Shown here: one piece after another, positions 951 through 45,732 of the stretch | Numbering within the stretch: the stretch's first letter is position 1 | How the letters are laid out: each line of letters opens with the position of its first letter | DNA from: Escherichia coli O127:H6 str. E2348/69 | GTDB lineage: Bacteria; Pseudomonadota; Gammaproteobacteria; Enterobacterales; Enterobacteriaceae | Reading direction: 5' to 3' (one strand) | Length of the DNA stretch: 64,000 bases | NCBI RefSeq assembly: GCF_000026545.1 | Contig: NC_011601.1 | Notes under the pieces: model-generated | Databases searched by the model: none | The model's input: the letters and a program-made list of their open reading frames with translations, nothing else | What the model was told of the DNA's origin: nothing | Translations under genes and position numbers: made by a program

Positions 951-1708
951 GGTAACCACATAGCCAGTGCCAACGTTTTATCATCATCCGTACGCTCGTT
1001 TACCGCCGGGCTGGACAAAAACTGCTTTAACAATTCAGGTAATAAATCGAGTTGTTCCTGCGTTGCTGACGCCAGTCCATTGAAAAACGGGGTAAAGAAA
1101 GGCACATGCGGAGAATTATCCAGCATATTTAACGCCAGTCGCTGAATACCATCCGTAAATGCTGCAACTTTATGCGCACGCTCAGTGCTGGTGAAAGTTT
1201 CCAGTCTGGAAACGGCATCTTCATCGGTAATGAAGTGCGTCATATTGGCATATTCACCCACCATCGGCGTGAGCGGCAGTTGCAAACCGTGACCCAAATC
1301 TACCACCACGCCGCCATCGCCAATCTGCATAATCAAGGTGCCATTAGCTGATGAAATCAATCCCAAAAACGTGCAGGCAAAATCGCGAACCGCTAATTCT
1401 TTGGCTTCCGCCTCGGCAAAAAGTCGCTGACGAATGGTCAGCACAATGTCCGTTGCGAGAACATCATTAAGCCCCAATTCCCCGCCCTGCACTTTTTGCG
1501 ACATATAAGCCATCGCTTCATTGACGGCGAGCATCGCACCTTCGCCTCCCTGCGAGGCGCTACCTGCGCCATCAGCGACAAATACCGACAATAATGGCTG
1601 CTGGTCATTTAACCAGGCAACCTGCATCTGGCAGGCATCCTGGCAAGGCAAGTCCGCGCTGATGTGCGACGTTCCAACGGCTGATGCATAGACCAGACGC
1701 CAGCTCAC
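947..1708 (-). CDS. pphC: PP2C-family protein phosphatase
   Basis: 253-aa ORF, PP2C-like motif [16 protein letters not shown], overlaps yegL stop by 4 nt. Confidence 0.85.
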
Positions 1709-2364
1709 ACTGACGTCCAGCCTTTTGGCGCTTCCAGCACAACTTCCGTTCCCGGCGTGGAGCGGGAAACCGAACGCAGCGAACTGGATAACCAGCTAAA
1801 CAGTTCACGGAATTGTAACCCCTGCAGAGACAAAGGCTGACGGACGCTGATTTGAGCCAGCGTCTTCATATCCGCCCCCTGAACACCGATGGAAAAGAAG
1901 GCAAACTTCTTATCTTCTTCCCCCTGAAACACTTTGTTGGCGGCAGCCTGCCACTCATCGGTTGGTGCACCATCGGTGATCAGGAAAATCCACGGACGAT
2001 AATAGGAAATACCATTGGCACGATATTCACGTTTCCGCTCCTCAACCATATCCAGGGCTTTGGTAATGGCAGCGCCCATTGGTGTATCGCCCTGGGCAAA
2101 CAGGATGGGCGGGAAAAAATTAGCGGCGCTGGTAAAGGGTTGTTCCACATGCACCGGGCCGAACGTCACAATGCCGAGTTCCACTCTTTTTAAGGCCAGC
2201 GAATCGGCAAGCAGCTCATCGCGAAAGGTAATCAATCCGGCGTTAAGTTCATTAATGGGTCTGCCGCTCATCGAGCCAGAAACATCCAGCAGCAAAATGC
2301 AGGGGCAACGAGGTTCCGGGTTACTGGCAAAATCGCTGGTGGCAAACGTGATTTGTTCGCTCAT
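1705..2364 (-). CDS. yegL: von Willebrand factor A-domain protein
   Basis: 219-aa ORF with MIDAS-type motif [11 protein letters not shown]. Confidence 0.85.
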
Positions 2365-2529
2365 AAGAAATCCTTTCTTAGAGTATTATTGAGATCCGGT
2401 ATCATACCGACTGCAATAATGAAATAAGAGCAAACGAAGAAACTTTCAGAATTAGGCCCGGCGGCGCAGAAAATTTTGCTATTCGCCTCGCAAGAACGAA
2501 GAGCCGTCGATTGACACTAAGGGCGGAGT

Positions 2530-2671
2530 GACATAATTTCAGGAGTGAGGGTAGAGCGGGGTTTCCCCCGCCCTGGTAGTCTTAGTAAGCTGGCCAGCTA
2601 ATGACTAAGAGCACCACAATGATGAGTAGCTTCATCATGACCCTTTCCTTATTTAAGGCCCCTTCCTCGGG
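2530..2671 (+). ncRNA. Sib-type antisense antitoxin RNA, approximate bounds; 3' end may be cut by the IS
   Basis: Inferred only from position antisense to the Ibs toxin ORF; ends not defined from sequence. Confidence 0.3.
2582..2638 (-). CDS. Ibs-family type I toxin peptide (18 aa, MMKLLIIVVLLVISWPAY)
   Basis: Minus-strand ATGATG start, hydrophobic 18-codon ORF ending TAA at 2582-2584, in the yegL-mdtA spacer where K-12 carries ibs/sib; too short for the ORF track. Confidence 0.7.
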   Translation of the reverse strand: MMKLLIIVVLLVISWPAY

Positions 2672-4221
2672 CTGTCTCTTATACACAAATCCCCACCCGG
2701 GGATTTGTGATGTCTGTCAGTCTGCTTTAGGGGGACTCTTTCCATCCGGTAGTTTCCTTCCTCCCCGGCAGCGATTTTTTGAACTTTTTCCTCACCCGTT
2801 GATCTTCTCTTATATTTCATTTTCTTCGGGTCTGTTATGGTACTTTCTGATTGTTATTCATGGGCTAACGAGCAGTTTGGACATGCCCGTCTCGGTGATC
2901 CGCGTCGTACACGACGCCTTGTGTCACTGGCCTCTTCTCTCGCTCAGCATGCAGGTCTTTCTATTGTGAAATCATCCCAGTCCACTGCTCAGGTTGAAGG
3001 TGCGTACCGCCTGATACGTAACCCGTCTGTGTCCCCGCAAGCCATTGCCGAAGCCGGATTTACCGCCACTGTAAGGGCATGTGAGGCTCATCCGCTGCTC
3101 CTCGCGCTGGAAGACACCACCACCATTAACTTCAGTCACAGTACGGCATCTGATGACCTGGGGAATACCACCACTAACCCGAAGACGCGCGGGCTGCTGG
3201 CTCACTCTGTCCTGATGTACGCCCCCGACAGCGCCCTGCCAGTCGGTCTTATCGAACAGCAGCGCTGGAGTCGTGCCACGGACACCTACGGTGTTAAGCA
3301 CCAGCGAAAAGAACGTCCCTATGAAGAAAAAGAAAGTTACCGCTGGCAGCAGGCTTCGGAGCGCATGGCCGAACGGCTGGGGGAGATACAGAAACGGGTA
3401 ATCACTGTCTGTGACCGGGAAGCGGATATCTGGCATTACCTGCATTATAAAGTCAGCCACGGGCAGCGCTTCGTGGTGCGTGCAGCACAGAATCGCCGGC
3501 TGGAAGAAGCACCCGGCAAGCTCTTCGAACTGCCGGAAGTCCTGGCAACCGCGGGAAGCCACACGCTGAATGTGATGCAAAAAGGCGGGCGGGCAGCCCG
3601 CCAGGCCCGGATGTTCATCAGTTACAGCGAAGTCAGCATAAAAAATCCCGACAACAGCGGCCAGGCGCTCCCGCTCACGTATGTCTGTTGCCGGGAGCAG
3701 GCAGAGGACGGCGCCTGCTGGCATCTGCTGACGTCAGAAAAAGTGGCGAGTGCCGCCGATGCGCGACGTATCGTCAGCCATTACGAGCGACGCTGGCTGA
3801 TAGAGGAATACCACAAGGCGTGGAAAAGTGGTGGTACATGTGTGGAATCGCTGCGAATGCAGACCCGGGATAACCTCGAGCGCATGGTGGTTATCAAGGC
3901 GTTTATCGCGGTGCGGGTGCTGGGCCTGCGGCAGGGCGGTATCAGTGAAGAAACACAAAATGACAGCTGTGAGAAAATACTGACGCCGACAGAGTGGAAA
4001 CTGCTGTGGGTTAAGCTGGAAGGAAAACCGCTTCCGTCACAGATGCCGACACTGAAATGGGCCTGTCTGAAACTGGCGAAACTGGGGCGATGGCATGACA
4101 GCAAACGCACCGGTCGCCCCGGTTGGGTAGTCATGTGGGATGGCTGGTTCAGACTTCAGGATATGGTTGAGGGTTACCTGGTGATGAAGTCTCTTGATCA
4201 GGAGATCTGATCAAGAGACAG
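2672..4221 (+). mobile_element. IS50/Tn5-like insertion sequence (IS4 family), copy 1, 1550 bp
   Basis: Ends CTGTCTCTTATACACAAAT (left, Tn5 outside-end-like) and CTGTCTCTTGATCAGATCT (right, inverted; identical to Tn5 inside end); flanked by 8/9-bp direct repeat tcctcggg; carries the 457-aa transposase. Confidence 0.9.
2837..4210 (+). CDS. IS50/Tn5-like DDE transposase (457 aa)
   Basis: N-terminus ...GDPRRTRRLV...EGAYRLIRNPSVS and C-terminal ...YERRWLIEEYHKAWKSG...DSKRTG motifs recall Tn5 Tnp; identical to the copy at 44194-45567. Confidence 0.9.
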   Translation: MVLSDCYSWANEQFGHARLGDPRRTRRLVSLASSLAQHAGLSIVKSSQSTAQVEGAYRLIRNPSVSPQAIAEAGFTATVRACEAHPLLLALEDTTTINFSHSTASDDLGNTTTNPKTRGLLAHSVLMYAPDSALPVGLIEQQRWSRATDTYGVKHQRKERPYEEKESYRWQQASERMAERLGEIQKRVITVCDREADIWHYLHYKVSHGQRFVVRAAQNRRLEEAPGKLFELPEVLATAGSHTLNVMQKGGRAARQARMFISYSEVSIKNPDNSGQALPLTYVCCREQAEDGACWHLLTSEKVASAADARRIVSHYERRWLIEEYHKAWKSGGTCVESLRMQTRDNLERMVVIKAFIAVRVLGLRQGGISEETQNDSCEKILTPTEWKLLWVKLEGKPLPSQMPTLKWACLKLAKLGRWHDSKRTGRPGWVVMWDGWFRLQDMVEGYLVMKSLDQEI

Positions 4222-4403
4222 TCCTCGGGAGGGGTTTTCCCGTTTCAGCGTCCCGCTGAAATCATCGGCTTACCTCCTTTCGCCATGCACGTAGTCTATC
4301 GCTAACGCGTAGATAAAATAGTTTCATGTGTTATTACTGGATGCGTGCTCGCAAATGTGCCCGCCATTCAGACGATTCCCGATAGTGTTTCATAATTCCT
4401 CCA

Positions 4404-4474: not shown

Positions 4475-5722
4475 ATGAAAGGCAGTTATAAATCCCGTTG
4501 GGTAATCGTAATCGTGGTGGTTATCGCCGCCATCGCCGCATTCTGGTTCTGGCAAGGCCGCAATGACTCCCGGAGTGCAGCCCCAGGGGCGACGAAACAA
4601 GCGCAGCAATCGCCAGCGGGTGGTCGCCGTGGTATGCGTTCCGGCCCATTAGCCCCGGTTCAGGCGGCGACCGCCGTAGAACAGGCAGTTCCGCGTTACC
4701 TCACCGGGCTTGGCACCATTACCGCCGCTAATACCGTTACGGTGCGCAGCCGCGTGGACGGCCAACTGATAGCGTTACATTTCCAGGAAGGCCAGCAGGT
4801 CAAAGCAGGCGATTTACTGGCAGAAATTGACCCCAGCCAGTTCAAAGTTGCATTAGCACAAGCCCAGGGCCAACTGGCAAAAGATAAAGCCACGCTTGCC
4901 AACGCCCGCCGTGACCTGGCGCGTTATCAGCAACTGGCAAAAACCAATCTCGTATCTCGTCAGGAACTGGATGCCCAACAAGCGCTGGTCAGTGAAACCG
5001 AAGGCACCATTAAGGCTGATGAAGCAAGCGTCGCCAGCGCGCAGCTGCAACTCGACTGGAGCCGTATCACCGCACCAGTTGATGGTCGCGTTGGTCTCAA
5101 GCAGGTTGATGTTGGTAACCAAATCTCCAGTGGCGACACCACCGGGATTGTGGTGATCACCCAAACACATCCTATCGATCTGGTCTTTACTTTGCCGGAA
5201 AGCGATATCGCCACCGTTGTACAGGCACAAAAAGCCGGAAAACCGCTGGTGGTAGAAGCCTGGGATCGCACCAACTCGAAGAAGTTAAGTGAAGGCACGC
5301 TGTTAAGCCTTGATAACCAAATCGATGCCACTACCGGTACGATTAAAGTGAAAGCACGCTTTAATAATCAGGATGATGCGCTGTTTCCCAATCAGTTTGT
5401 TAACGCGCGCATGTTAGTCGACACAGAGCAAAACGCTGTGGTGATCCCAACAGCCGCCCTGCAAATGGGCAATGAAGGCCATTTTGTCTGGGTGCTGAAT
5501 AGCGAAAACAAGGTCAGCAAACATCTGGTGACGCCGGGCATTCAGGACAGTCAGAAAGTGGTGATCCGCGCAGGTATTTCTGCGGGCGACCGCGTAGTGA
5601 CAGACGGCATTGATCGCCTGACCGAAGGGGCGAAAGTGGAAGTAGTGGAAGCCCAGAGCGCCACCACTCCGGAAGAGAAAGCCACCAGCCGCGAATACGC
5701 GAAAAAAGGAGCACGCTCCTGA
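4475..5722 (+). CDS. mdtA: RND efflux membrane fusion protein MdtA
   Basis: 415-aa reading from [16 protein letters not shown] (ATG 4475, preceded by the BaeR box); the 464-aa track ORF is an upstream in-frame extension. Confidence 0.92.
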
Positions 5723-44182: not shown

Positions 44183-45732
44183 CTGTCTCTTGATCAGATC
44201 TCCTGATCAAGAGACTTCATCACCAGGTAACCCTCAACCATATCCTGAAGTCTGAACCAGCCATCCCACATGACTACCCAACCGGGGCGACCGGTGCGTT
44301 TGCTGTCATGCCATCGCCCCAGTTTCGCCAGTTTCAGACAGGCCCATTTCAGTGTCGGCATCTGTGACGGAAGCGGTTTTCCTTCCAGCTTAACCCACAG
44401 CAGTTTCCACTCTGTCGGCGTCAGTATTTTCTCACAGCTGTCATTTTGTGTTTCTTCACTGATACCGCCCTGCCGCAGGCCCAGCACCCGCACCGCGATA
44501 AACGCCTTGATAACCACCATGCGCTCGAGGTTATCCCGGGTCTGCATTCGCAGCGATTCCACACATGTACCACCACTTTTCCACGCCTTGTGGTATTCCT
44601 CTATCAGCCAGCGTCGCTCGTAATGGCTGACGATACGTCGCGCATCGGCGGCACTCGCCACTTTTTCTGACGTCAGCAGATGCCAGCAGGCGCCGTCCTC
44701 TGCCTGCTCCCGGCAACAGACATACGTGAGCGGGAGCGCCTGGCCGCTGTTGTCGGGATTTTTTATGCTGACTTCGCTGTAACTGATGAACATCCGGGCC
44801 TGGCGGGCTGCCCGCCCGCCTTTTTGCATCACATTCAGCGTGTGGCTTCCCGCGGTTGCCAGGACTTCCGGCAGTTCGAAGAGCTTGCCGGGTGCTTCTT
44901 CCAGCCGGCGATTCTGTGCTGCACGCACCACGAAGCGCTGCCCGTGGCTGACTTTATAATGCAGGTAATGCCAGATATCCGCTTCCCGGTCACAGACAGT
45001 GATTACCCGTTTCTGTATCTCCCCCAGCCGTTCGGCCATGCGCTCCGAAGCCTGCTGCCAGCGGTAACTTTCTTTTTCTTCATAGGGACGTTCTTTTCGC
45101 TGGTGCTTAACACCGTAGGTGTCCGTGGCACGACTCCAGCGCTGCTGTTCGATAAGACCGACTGGCAGGGCGCTGTCGGGGGCGTACATCAGGACAGAGT
45201 GAGCCAGCAGCCCGCGCGTCTTCGGGTTAGTGGTGGTATTCCCCAGGTCATCAGATGCCGTACTGTGACTGAAGTTAATGGTGGTGGTGTCTTCCAGCGC
45301 GAGGAGCAGCGGATGAGCCTCACATGCCCTTACAGTGGCGGTAAATCCGGCTTCGGCAATGGCTTGCGGGGACACAGACGGGTTACGTATCAGGCGGTAC
45401 GCACCTTCAACCTGAGCAGTGGACTGGGATGATTTCACAATAGAAAGACCTGCATGCTGAGCGAGAGAAGAGGCCAGTGACACAAGGCGTCGTGTACGAC
45501 GCGGATCACCGAGACGGGCATGTCCAAACTGCTCGTTAGCCCATGAATAACAATCAGAAAGTACCATAACAGACCCGAAGAAAATGAAATATAAGAGAAG
45601 ATCAACGGGTGAGGAAAAAGTTCAAAAAATCGCTGCCGGGGAGGAAGGAAACTACCGGATGGAAAGAGTCCCCCTAAAGCAGACTGACAGACATCACAAA
45701 TCCCCGGGTGGGGATTTGTGTATAAGAGACAG
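44183..45732 (-). mobile_element. IS50/Tn5-like insertion sequence (IS4 family), copy 2, 1550 bp, inverted relative to copy 1
   Basis: Same terminal sequences as copy 1; perfect 9-bp target-site duplication CGGAGAGAG at 44174-44182 and 45733-45741. Confidence 0.92.
44194..45567 (-). CDS. IS50/Tn5-like DDE transposase (457 aa)
   Basis: Protein identical to the ORF at 2837-4210. Confidence 0.9.
   Translation of the reverse strand: MVLSDCYSWANEQFGHARLGDPRRTRRLVSLASSLAQHAGLSIVKSSQSTAQVEGAYRLIRNPSVSPQAIAEAGFTATVRACEAHPLLLALEDTTTINFSHSTASDDLGNTTTNPKTRGLLAHSVLMYAPDSALPVGLIEQQRWSRATDTYGVKHQRKERPYEEKESYRWQQASERMAERLGEIQKRVITVCDREADIWHYLHYKVSHGQRFVVRAAQNRRLEEAPGKLFELPEVLATAGSHTLNVMQKGGRAARQARMFISYSEVSIKNPDNSGQALPLTYVCCREQAEDGACWHLLTSEKVASAADARRIVSHYERRWLIEEYHKAWKSGGTCVESLRMQTRDNLERMVVIKAFIAVRVLGLRQGGISEETQNDSCEKILTPTEWKLLWVKLEGKPLPSQMPTLKWACLKLAKLGRWHDSKRTGRPGWVVMWDGWFRLQDMVEGYLVMKSLDQEI

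Follow-up and report, generated by a model that had tools for sequence, protein, structure and literature searches.

In Escherichia coli K-12, the spacer between yegL and mdtA harbors two tandem units of the Ibs/Sib type I toxin-antitoxin (TA) family, ibsB-sibB and ibsA-sibA (Fozo et al. 2008; Han et al. 2010, PMC2943612). A unit of this family comprises the ORF of a hydrophobic Ibs toxin of 18-19 amino acids, transcribed from a contiguous promoter with a leader of approximately 60-65 nt, and the antisense Sib RNA, which is made from its own promoter and ends at its own intrinsic terminator. Insertion sequences of the IS50 subgroup measure 1,350-1,550 bp, possess terminal inverted repeats beginning with CT and generate target duplications of 8-9 bp (Table 1 in De Palmenaer et al. 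2008, PMC2266710). In the locus presented here, a known TA family is broken by a known insertion sequence. It lies in the yegL-mdtA spacer of E. coli E2348/69, to which the window (the whole stretch of 64,000 nt that was analyzed) is 100% identical. Unlike the K-12 ibsA and ibsB loci, it consists of one hybrid unit whose Sib terminator is split and whose ibs promoter, together with half of the leader, is presumably 1.56 kb away. Due to the split terminator and the displaced promoter, the locus would lack what makes a module functional, namely a contiguous pair of fully overlapping transcripts. The Ibs/Sib locus of E2348/69 is best regarded as a case of ordinary gene decay by IS insertion, and its modest novelty resides in the target preference of the element.

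The features of the locus are compiled in Table 1. Three assemblies of E2348/69 / O127:H6, obtained independently, agree at 100% identity over the junction between the IS and ibs/sib. Since these assemblies are concordant, an assembly artefact was ruled out. All features named in the earlier note, which had been made from the DNA alone, were found where that note had placed them.

Table 1. Features of the yegL-mdtA spacer in the window and the basis of their assignment
Feature	Position	Strand	Basis or remark
yegL (vWA-domain protein), left spacer boundary	1705..2364	-	RefSeq annotation of the identical E2348/69 record; ORF list
Sib promoter	2511..2537	+	-35 TTGACA (2511-2516), 15-nt spacer, TG-extended -10 CATAAT (2532-2537)
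Sib RNA body, nt 1-125 of about 136	2547..2671	+	RF00113; alignment to K-12 sibB
ibs toxin ORF, 18 aa, IbsB-like with F15W, intact	2582..2638	-	translation; comparison with K-12 IbsA/IbsB; RefSeq
ibs 5' leader, retained 3' half, 33 nt, with Shine-Dalgarno AAGGAAAGGG	2639..2671	-	sequence; five K-12 units aligned
Junction hairpin, GGCCC-CTTCCTC-GGGCT then GTCTCTTATA	2657..2683	+	terminator-like in scan; 5-bp stem
Target-site duplication, left copy, 8 bp, TCCTCGGG	2664..2671	.	sequence; empty site in IS-free genomes
ISEc13 (IS4 family, IS50 subgroup), 1,550 bp	2672..4221	+	sequence; RefSeq; transposase homology
Perfect 11-bp hairpin just inside IRL, CACAAATCCCC-ACCC-GGGGATTTGTG	2684..2709	+	
ISEc13 transposase gene, 457 aa, co-directional with Sib	2837..4210	+	ORF list; RefSeq; homology
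Target-site duplication, right copy, 8 bp, TCCTCGGG	4222..4229	.	sequence
Sib terminator 3' arm and U-run (AGGGGTTTTC), displaced	4230..4239	+	
ibs leader, displaced 5' half	about 4230-4259	-	homology to ibsC/ibsD +1
ibs +1, predicted	about 4259-4260	-	homology to ibsC/ibsD +1; expected to be good within a few nt
ibs promoter region, displaced (putative)	about 4261-4300 (entry 4230..4300)	-	homology to ibsC/ibsD +1
mdtA, right spacer boundary	4475..5722	+	RefSeq annotation; sequence

The spacer contains a single ibs/sib unit where K-12 and UTI89 have two. Alignment with both strains, which agrees with the single copy noted earlier, revealed that the promoter and ORF of unit 1 are joined to the right flank of unit 2, i.e. 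the unit is a hybrid. Among 5,426 genomes, 90 carry a single-unit allele without the IS that corresponds to the reconstructed empty site, strain 382634_2f being an example of such a natural allele; at best, the alignment covers 552/552 nt without a gap and with 99.1% identity. Most likely, the hybrid unit predates the IS; this order, unit loss followed by insertion, is based on these IS-free alleles at 99.1% identity and not on a phylogeny.

The toxin gene itself is undamaged. Its translation (MMKLLIIVVLLVISWPAY*) matches K-12 IbsB (MMKLLIIVVLLVISFPAY) in 17 of 18 residues, the product is labeled Ibs family toxin (WP_100249772.1) in RefSeq, and the Ibs protein of UTI89 bears the same accession; relative to UTI89 the ORF has not decayed. 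Between the ATG (2638) and the IS there are 33 nt (2639-2671). The transcription start of ibsC was placed at -60 and that of ibsD at -65 from the ATG, as read from the in-vitro-transcription primers, which were based on primer-extension mapping (Han et al. 2010, PMC2943612). The start in the window was transferred by alignment from ibsC and ibsD, not from the A/B units or from E2348/69, and by this homology the insertion falls at about +31 of a leader of approximately 64 nt. Therefore, the ibs promoter and about 31 nt of leader should now reside 1.56 kb off on the mdtA side, beyond the IS, 1,558 bp separating the ORF with its Shine-Dalgarno sequence from the promoter side. Judged by the ibsC/ibsD homology, ibs has no contiguous promoter and leader of 60-65 nt. 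The earlier note had described an intact ORF, an IS starting 33 bp before the toxin start codon and a toxin gene probably severed from its native promoter and 5' leader. The first two statements hold as written and the third is borne out by the predicted +1 beyond the IS. Alignment with the K-12 spacer, proposed there as a check, did not place both the ibs promoter and a complete sib gene on the yegL side.

For the Sib RNA, the Rfam model RF00113 (SIB_RNA) was matched over its full length at 2511-2653 on the plus strand with 138 bits (gathering score 56, E 4e-29). The RNA has its own, intact promoter, which matches the consensus at 11 of 12 positions with an extended -10 element (TTGACA-15-TGaCATAAT) and is identical to the unit-1 promoter of K-12 and UTI89. 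A first promoter scan that allowed only spacers of 16-18 nt missed it, and it was found in a rescan with a custom script. The Sib start was set by homology to the annotation of K-12 sibA and sibB. Like the toxin, the Sib body is close to ibsB-sibB, being near-identical to SibB, and its 5' 98 nt have the same predicted fold. K-12 sibB is annotated with 136 nt, its 3' end ...CCTCGGGAGGGGCTTTCC including the terminator hairpin, for which a stem of 9-11 bp is predicted (CCCCTTC-CTCG-GGAGGGG-TTTT). In the window, the IS splits this intrinsic terminator in its loop after Sib nt 125, so that the 3' arm and the U-run are lost from the gene, in agreement with the truncated antisense RNA suspected in the earlier reading, and Sib should no longer end at its own terminator. 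Thus, the full-length Rfam hit does not mean a complete sib gene, because the model covers the promoter and not the terminator. The fold predicted after the insertion comprises a 5-bp stem at 2657-2673 and the 11-bp hairpin of the IS, which has no U-run. The former, to which the Sib terminator contributes its left half and the IS its end, may serve as a weak surrogate terminator.

The inserted element, previously recognised as IS50-like, is named ISEc13 in RefSeq. Its single-ORF DDE transposase is a full-length homologue of the Tn5 transposase (PDB 1MUH/4DM0; E 6e-84, residues 6-453) and reached 514 bits with NCBIfam NF033590 (cut-off 160). The left inverted repeat (IRL) is CTGTCTCTTATACACAAAT, the right one (IRR), read as its reverse complement, CTGTCTCTTGATCAGATCT; IRR is the same as the IS50 inside end, and between IRL and the outside end there are two mismatches. 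With its 1,550 bp, CTGTCTCTT at both ends and target duplications of 8 bp at seven sites and 9 bp at one, ISEc13 fits the subgroup traits and resembles IS50/Tn5 (De Palmenaer et al. 2008, PMC2266710). Between strains, the element is identical at 1549 of 1550 positions. E2348/69 contains roughly 28 copies, the highest copy number among the 5,426 genomes.

The best explanation, which we regard as probable, is a decayed TA locus in which two units collapsed into one before ISEc13 inserted into the Sib terminator. Recombination between the repeats would have converted the tandem units to the hybrid unit, and ISEc13 would then have entered the terminator loop, duplicating the 8 bp TCCTCGGG. Since the antisense genes ibs and sib overlap completely, one insertion cuts both transcripts. 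The ibs promoter and ORF would now be separated by the IS read in antisense with several terminator-like hairpins; the scan detected four of them on the minus strand inside the element. In this position, ibs is likely to be a transcriptional orphan with little or no expression. Sib would lose the 3' arm and U-run of its terminator, its promoter and both target-recognition regions staying intact, and is likely still made, ending at the weak junction hairpin or deeper in the IS. The insertion may have been tolerated because the loss of toxin expression was no smaller than that of antitoxin function. A literature search on Sib expression in E2348/69 returned nothing relevant. The locus itself matters little: it can be viewed as a naturally occurring knock-down of a single Ibs/Sib module in a reference strain of EPEC, and this is useful for work on type I toxins and sRNAs in E2348/69 because annotation from sequence, with an Ibs coding sequence and a full Rfam hit, suggests an intact module. 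More generally, where genes overlap as an antisense pair, one insertion can disable the genes of both strands at once.

The choice of the insertion site was analyzed by comparing ISEc13 flanks. In 14 of 15 distinct left flanks a C-run stops 7-9 nt short of the IS, compared to 6% in the background (binomial P about 1e-16, for a motif defined post hoc from the sites themselves); the sample comprised about 15 distinct sites, while E2348/69 alone has roughly 28 copies. To judge from these flanks, ISEc13 evidently selects palindromes of the type CCCCY-N8/9-RGGGG, typically GC-rich terminator hairpins, and the conserved Sib terminators are, by their sequence, among the few full-consensus target sites of an E. 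coli genome. This preference accounts for the repeated strikes at the same Sib hairpin in other strains. Sib terminators contain ISEc13 at an identical position in six combinations of site and orientation and in at least 14 strains besides E2348/69. In the single-unit yegL-mdtA allele it is inserted in plus orientation in E2348/69 and in minus orientation in A25; at sibB in plus orientation in Z1322HEC0010; at sibA in minus orientation in A21 and three other strains; and at sibE in plus orientation in five and in minus orientation in three strains. The duplication is TCTCCGGG at sibA and TCCTCGGG at sibB and sibE. Hence, independent insertions share non-random flanks, and a single site has been entered in both orientations. 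The same C-run/G-run architecture also occurs at ISEc13 sites outside Sib. After reconstruction, the window contained two consensus sites, both of which are occupied by an IS, and no unoccupied consensus site was detected in the window. The E2348/69 copy at 3.48 Mb has no duplication and adjoins a truncated PTS gene; it was counted only as two half-sites.

Other explanations have to be weighed against decay by target-driven insertion. The locus might still be a working TA pair, with ibs transcribed through a short chimeric leader from an outward or hybrid promoter at the left end of the IS or by read-through, and with Sib still repressing it by pairing of its recognition regions with the ORF and the translation-initiation region. 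Outward promoters are known at the ends of other IS4-family elements, e.g. pOUT of IS10. The insertion has spared the ORF with its Shine-Dalgarno sequence and 33 nt of leader, the Sib body is intact, the toxin is the same as in UTI89, and a TATAAG hexamer is situated on the ibs strand 7-12 nt inside IRL. This hexamer, however, lacks the conserved T6 and a recognisable -35 element, and on the minus strand between 2600 and 2950 no sigma-70-like -35/-10 pair matching at least 8 of 12 positions with A2 and T6 was detected, in a crude consensus scan that a weak outward or hybrid promoter such as TATAAG could escape. IS-driven expression of ibs is therefore not claimed. Moreover, an intact ORF of 57 nt says little if the insertion happened recently, and the IS is almost identical between strains. 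Altogether, a working pair appears unlikely.

The association of ISEc13 with Sib could also stem from one ancestral insertion that spread by homologous recombination or gene conversion among repeats and strains. Recombination is frequent in E. coli, the Sib units are homologous to each other over about 150 bp on one side and over 60-100 bp on the other, and the spacer allele is identical in E2348/69 and A25. On the other hand, both orientations at the same site are impossible to obtain by recombination, and because they occur, such spread was rejected as the main explanation. The duplications fit the local sequence at sibA as well as at sibB/sibE, the flanks are locus-specific on either side, and the sites outside Sib have the same architecture, all of which makes this origin very improbable. 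We consider it hardly more credible, if not slightly less, that the insertion was kept by selection on its neighbors, either on the BaeR-regulated efflux genes mdtABCD or on read-through from the Sib promoter into the transposase gene. Only 253 bp separate the right end of the IS from the ATG of mdtA downstream, the strong Sib promoter reads in the direction of the transposase gene and is deprived of its terminator, and E2348/69 has the top ISEc13 copy number. Yet neither a promoter-like site of mdtA (4367-4396) nor the sequence that follows the IS has changed compared to UTI89 and K-12, and no more than 8-11 copies are present in other strains whose IS at sibE is likewise co-directional.

With the preferred reading, decay by insertion into a favored target, ISEc13 emerges as a Tn5-like element with a sharp and predictable target, the terminator palindrome C-run/N8-9/G-run. 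This target explains why Sib terminators have been hit repeatedly and independently, in both orientations, and, therefore, makes ISEc13 insertions poor phylogenetic markers. By contrast to the loose target consensus of Tn5, the preference of ISEc13 is strong, and through it the reading of target structure by a Tn5-family transposase could be studied in a natural setting. Another member of the IS4 family, IS186, reportedly prefers targets composed of a G-run, N and a C-run, e.g. the hot spot in the lon promoter. Both elements use short, GC-rich palindromic targets and, as a result, have a few strong hot spots in each genome; their runs differ in polarity (G...C for IS186, C...G for ISEc13), the duplication of IS186 is longer, and the link to terminators and to a TA repeat family is specific to ISEc13. 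Elements that target REP sequences or hairpins are IS1397/ISKpn1, IS621, ISPpu9/10 and ISRm22 (Tobes & Pareja 2006, PMC1525189), ISRm22 being an IS4-family member that is also able to target repeated palindromes (PMC1525189). Like these, ISEc13 uses repeated extragenic palindromes, i.e. "safe" intergenic sites, but its targets are intrinsic terminator hairpins and Sib repeats instead of REP/BIME. Our literature searches on IS targeting of terminators yielded only the work on REP, those on ISEc13 only mentions in resistome or mobilome lists, and the text of the IS4-family review describes no terminator preference for the IS50 subgroup (PMC2266710).

Relatives with approximately 50% identical transposases exist in marine bacteria and appear to enter terminator hairpins as well. 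At 77 distinct sites these elements adjoin an A-run, a GC stem and a loop, with an orientation bias, the A-run being on the left in 78%; the loci analyzed contained only three complete copies with a recognisable duplication. Unlike in Tn5, IRL of the relatives is directly followed on its inner side by a hairpin with a T-run, where ISEc13 has the hairpin with a degraded T-run. It is conceivable, if somewhat doubtful, that ISEc13 and these relatives (Vibrio, Shewanella, Neiella and similar) form a Tn5-like clade specific for the loops of intrinsic terminators, with recurrent decapitation of Ibs genes as a consequence. In the openly searchable literature, no description of such a clade was found. 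The hairpin and T-run inside the left end might shield the transposase gene from read-through and could substitute for the destroyed terminator, and the Sib terminators of E. coli would be prime landing pads. If so, this would be a recurrent, target-driven route of type I TA decay.

Between yegL and mdtA the window, which matches the chromosome of enteropathogenic E. coli O127:H6 E2348/69 at 100% identity, carries a single ibs/sib unit interrupted by an insertion sequence. An intact 18-aa Ibs-family ORF with an IS50-like element 33 nt upstream of its ATG, as described in the earlier note, was recovered. The translated ORF (MMKLLIIVVLLVISWPAY) equals K-12 IbsB with one substitution, and RefSeq labels it Ibs family toxin. 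The element, ISEc13 in the RefSeq annotation, comprises 1,550 bp with the ends CTGTCTCTTATACACAAAT and (reverse complement) CTGTCTCTTGATCAGATCT, and the 8-bp direct repeat TCCTCGGG is present on both sides. Its 457-aa transposase is a Tn5 transposase homologue over the full length (E 6e-84; NF033590, 514 bits), and ISEc13 agrees with the IS50 subgroup (PMC2266710) in all points tested. The ibs/IS junction has the same sequence in three independent assemblies of E2348/69.

Coordinates of the ibs/sib locus and of the ISEc13 copies in the window
Feature	Position	Strand	Remark
yegL	1705-2364	-	one border of the spacer
Sib	2511-2653	+	full-length Rfam SIB_RNA match, 138 bits (gathering score 56)
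Sib promoter	2511-2537		TTGACA-15-TGaCATAAT, intact
Sib +1	2547		by homology
ibs ORF	2582-2638	-	18 codons, opposite strand to Sib
GTG-start ORF	2582-2686	-	34 codons, GTG at 2686-2684
ISEc13	2672-4221	+	
ISEc13 left end	2672-2690		
Hairpin within IS	2684-2709		perfect, 11 bp
Three GATC Dam sites	4195-4215		at the ISEc13 right end
ISEc13 right end	4203-4221		
Sib terminator 3′ arm and U-run	4230-4239		displaced
ibs +1	about 4259-4260	-	by alignment
mdtA	from 4475	+	other border of the spacer
Second ISEc13 copy	44183-45732	-	length identical; between convergent yehA and rcnB

The starts of ibsC and ibsD were mapped by primer extension (Han et al. 2010, PMC2943612); the in-vitro-transcription primers of that study place +1 at -60 (ibsC) and -65 (ibsD) relative to the ATG, beyond the Sib 3′ end. 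When the window unit is aligned with all five K-12 units, the ibs +1 falls on the mdtA side of the IS, so that the insertion point comes at about +31 in a leader of roughly 64 nt. By homology, the mdtA side retains the promoter and the 5′ half of the leader, and the yegL side the ORF and the 33 nt of leader that include the Shine-Dalgarno sequence. The K-12 sibA/sibB annotation runs from GAGGG... to ...GGGAGGGGCTTTCC and therefore takes in the intrinsic terminator. Of the roughly 136 nt of Sib, the first 125 precede the IS, which splits the loop of the hairpin CCCCTTC-CTCG-GGAGGGG. Hence the toxin ORF is parted from its promoter and half of its 5′ leader and the Sib 3′ end is truncated, as the earlier note had proposed; the alignment with the K-12 spacer, its suggested check, does not place the promoter and a complete sib together on the yegL side. 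The observation was correct in all details and its interpretation stands. As the Rfam model extends from the -35 box to a point short of the terminator, a high-scoring match over its full length is no proof of a complete sib gene or 3′ end.

A transcript from the displaced promoter would reach the ORF only after 1.55 kb of antisense IS sequence with four terminator-like hairpins, and a promoter scan found no outward sigma-70-like promoter at the IS left end; from these sequence features, the toxin gene is most likely orphaned. A TATAAG hexamer occurs 7-12 nt inside the left end, and there is a small possibility that it might drive ibs. The ibs frame is also open upstream into the IS end, but the resulting GTG-initiated extension lacks a Shine-Dalgarno sequence and probably has no significance.

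For Sib, the promoter and the predicted fold of the 5′ 98 nt are kept. The regions of SibC sufficient for repression lie in the corresponding 5′ part (PMC2943612) and, by analogy, would be held by these 98 nt. The native terminator stem of 9-11 bp is reduced to a 5-bp junction hairpin (GGCCC-CTTCCTC-GGGCT, then GUCUCUUAUA), which was called terminator-like by the scan; 12 nt past it follows the IS hairpin, which has no U-run. Given the weak junction stem and the IS hairpin without U-run, a heterogeneous or extended Sib 3′ end is predicted. The strong Sib promoter faces into the IS, where the transposase ATG follows after 290 nt (2547-2837, +), and the Sib terminator is destroyed; read-through may raise transposase expression of this copy. 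Due to the overlapping antisense layout, a single insertion strikes ibs and sib together, which is probably why it was tolerated. Toxin and RNA belong to the Ibs/Sib family by sequence, but the locus lacks two defining features of the module, a contiguous ibs promoter with leader and a complete Sib terminator. It represents an ordinary case in which an IS has led to the decay of a redundant toxin-antitoxin copy.

Variation of ibs copy number among strains is already on record (PMC2887945). The empty site was rebuilt by taking out the IS and one repeat copy, and the spacer was aligned with K-12 and with UTI89, a close B2 relative. Units of about 330 bp occur twice in UTI89 and in K-12 and once in E2348/69, confirming the single ibs copy stated in the earlier note. 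The remaining unit is a hybrid of the yegL-proximal flank, Sib promoter and ORF of unit 1 and the mdtA-proximal flank of unit 2, and the crossover lies in the interval from the ORF to about 60 nt beyond the terminator. Among 5,426 complete E. coli genomes, 90 have a single-unit spacer that aligns in one piece, and the best natural IS-free matches to the rebuilt spacer cover 552/552 nt gap-free at 99.1%. The existence of such IS-free spacers suggests that the loss of one unit probably preceded the insertion.

ISEc13 has entered Sib terminators repeatedly, at the same position in all cases: the sibA terminator (-; A21, FDAARGOS_144 and two others), the sibB terminator of a two-unit allele (+; Z1322HEC0010) and the sibE terminator (+ in five strains, - in three). 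Spread by recombination alone is ruled out by the occurrence of both orientations and by duplications that agree with the local sequence of each site. A25 (NZ_CP028750.1, 2844000-2848500) possesses a single-unit hybrid allele identical to that of the window, with the same 8-bp duplication and an IS identical at 1549/1550 positions, but inverted; this may reflect a separate transposition into the identical site or inversion of the element in place. In A25 a further ISEc13 occupies the sibE terminator. The sibB copy of Z1322HEC0010 (1,549 bp; 2613-4161 of the locus sequence) is decaying at the shared insertion position, since its transposase is annotated as split or frameshifted.

The aspect that merits further work is the target preference of ISEc13. 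Sites outside sib have the same architecture. The second window copy, its transposase gene co-directional with yehA, lies in the hairpin of the yehA/rcnB terminator TTCCCCC[CTCTCTCCG]AGGGGGCTTTTTTTT with a 9-bp duplication; a plasmid site reads GTCCCCT[CCTTCGGG]AGGGTGTTTTTT and a third non-Sib site CTCCCC[CTATCAGG]GGGGG. When 13 extra left flanks from metagenomes were pooled with the E. coli sites, 14 of 15 distinct flanks had a C-run whose end lay 7-9 nt away from the IS (background 6%). For the consensus CCCCY-N8/9-RGGGG, defined after looking at the sites, about 19 matches per 5 Mb are expected by chance; against this number, the three to five Sib terminators weigh heavily among the available targets, enough to account for the recurrence. 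Near-identical ISEc13 (at least 99%) is rare (19 of 20,395 records), with the highest copy number, about 28, in E2348/69. No unoccupied consensus site was found in the 64-kb window and its only two reconstructed sites both hold ISEc13, which suggests that this strain is near saturation of its consensus targets. Elsewhere on the E2348/69 chromosome (within 3478116-3483249), a copy without target duplication adjoins a truncated fructose-PTS IIA pseudogene; its flanks resemble half-sites of different targets, which points to a possible IS-mediated rearrangement or deletion.

No description of ISEc13 targeting or of IS insertion in Sib terminators was found in the open-access literature. The choice of a GC-rich palindromic target resembles that of IS186. 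It is also similar to that of REP-targeting elements, including ISRm22 of the IS4 family (PMC1525189).

The exact 23-nt left end was detected in 81 loci of Vibrio, Neiella, Shewanella, Aliagarivorans, Alishewanella, Rheinheimera and Photobacterium, marine gammaproteobacteria whose transposases are about 50% identical to that of ISEc13. In 78% of 77 distinct left flanks (controls 8%), an A-run precedes a GC-rich stem and then an AT-rich loop, a terminator-like arrangement and an orientation bias with the A-run on the left. The three complete copies lie in hairpin loops, the duplication comprising the loop and two stem pairs on each side. Directly inside the left inverted repeat, all relatives have AAATCCCC-loop-GGGGATTTTTTT, a hairpin with T-run that may be a built-in terminator; in the ISEc13 counterpart the T-run has decayed. 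Regarding the termini, the ISEc13 right end equals the IS50 inside end; the left end departs from the outside end at two positions and resembles the engineered Tn5 'mosaic end'.
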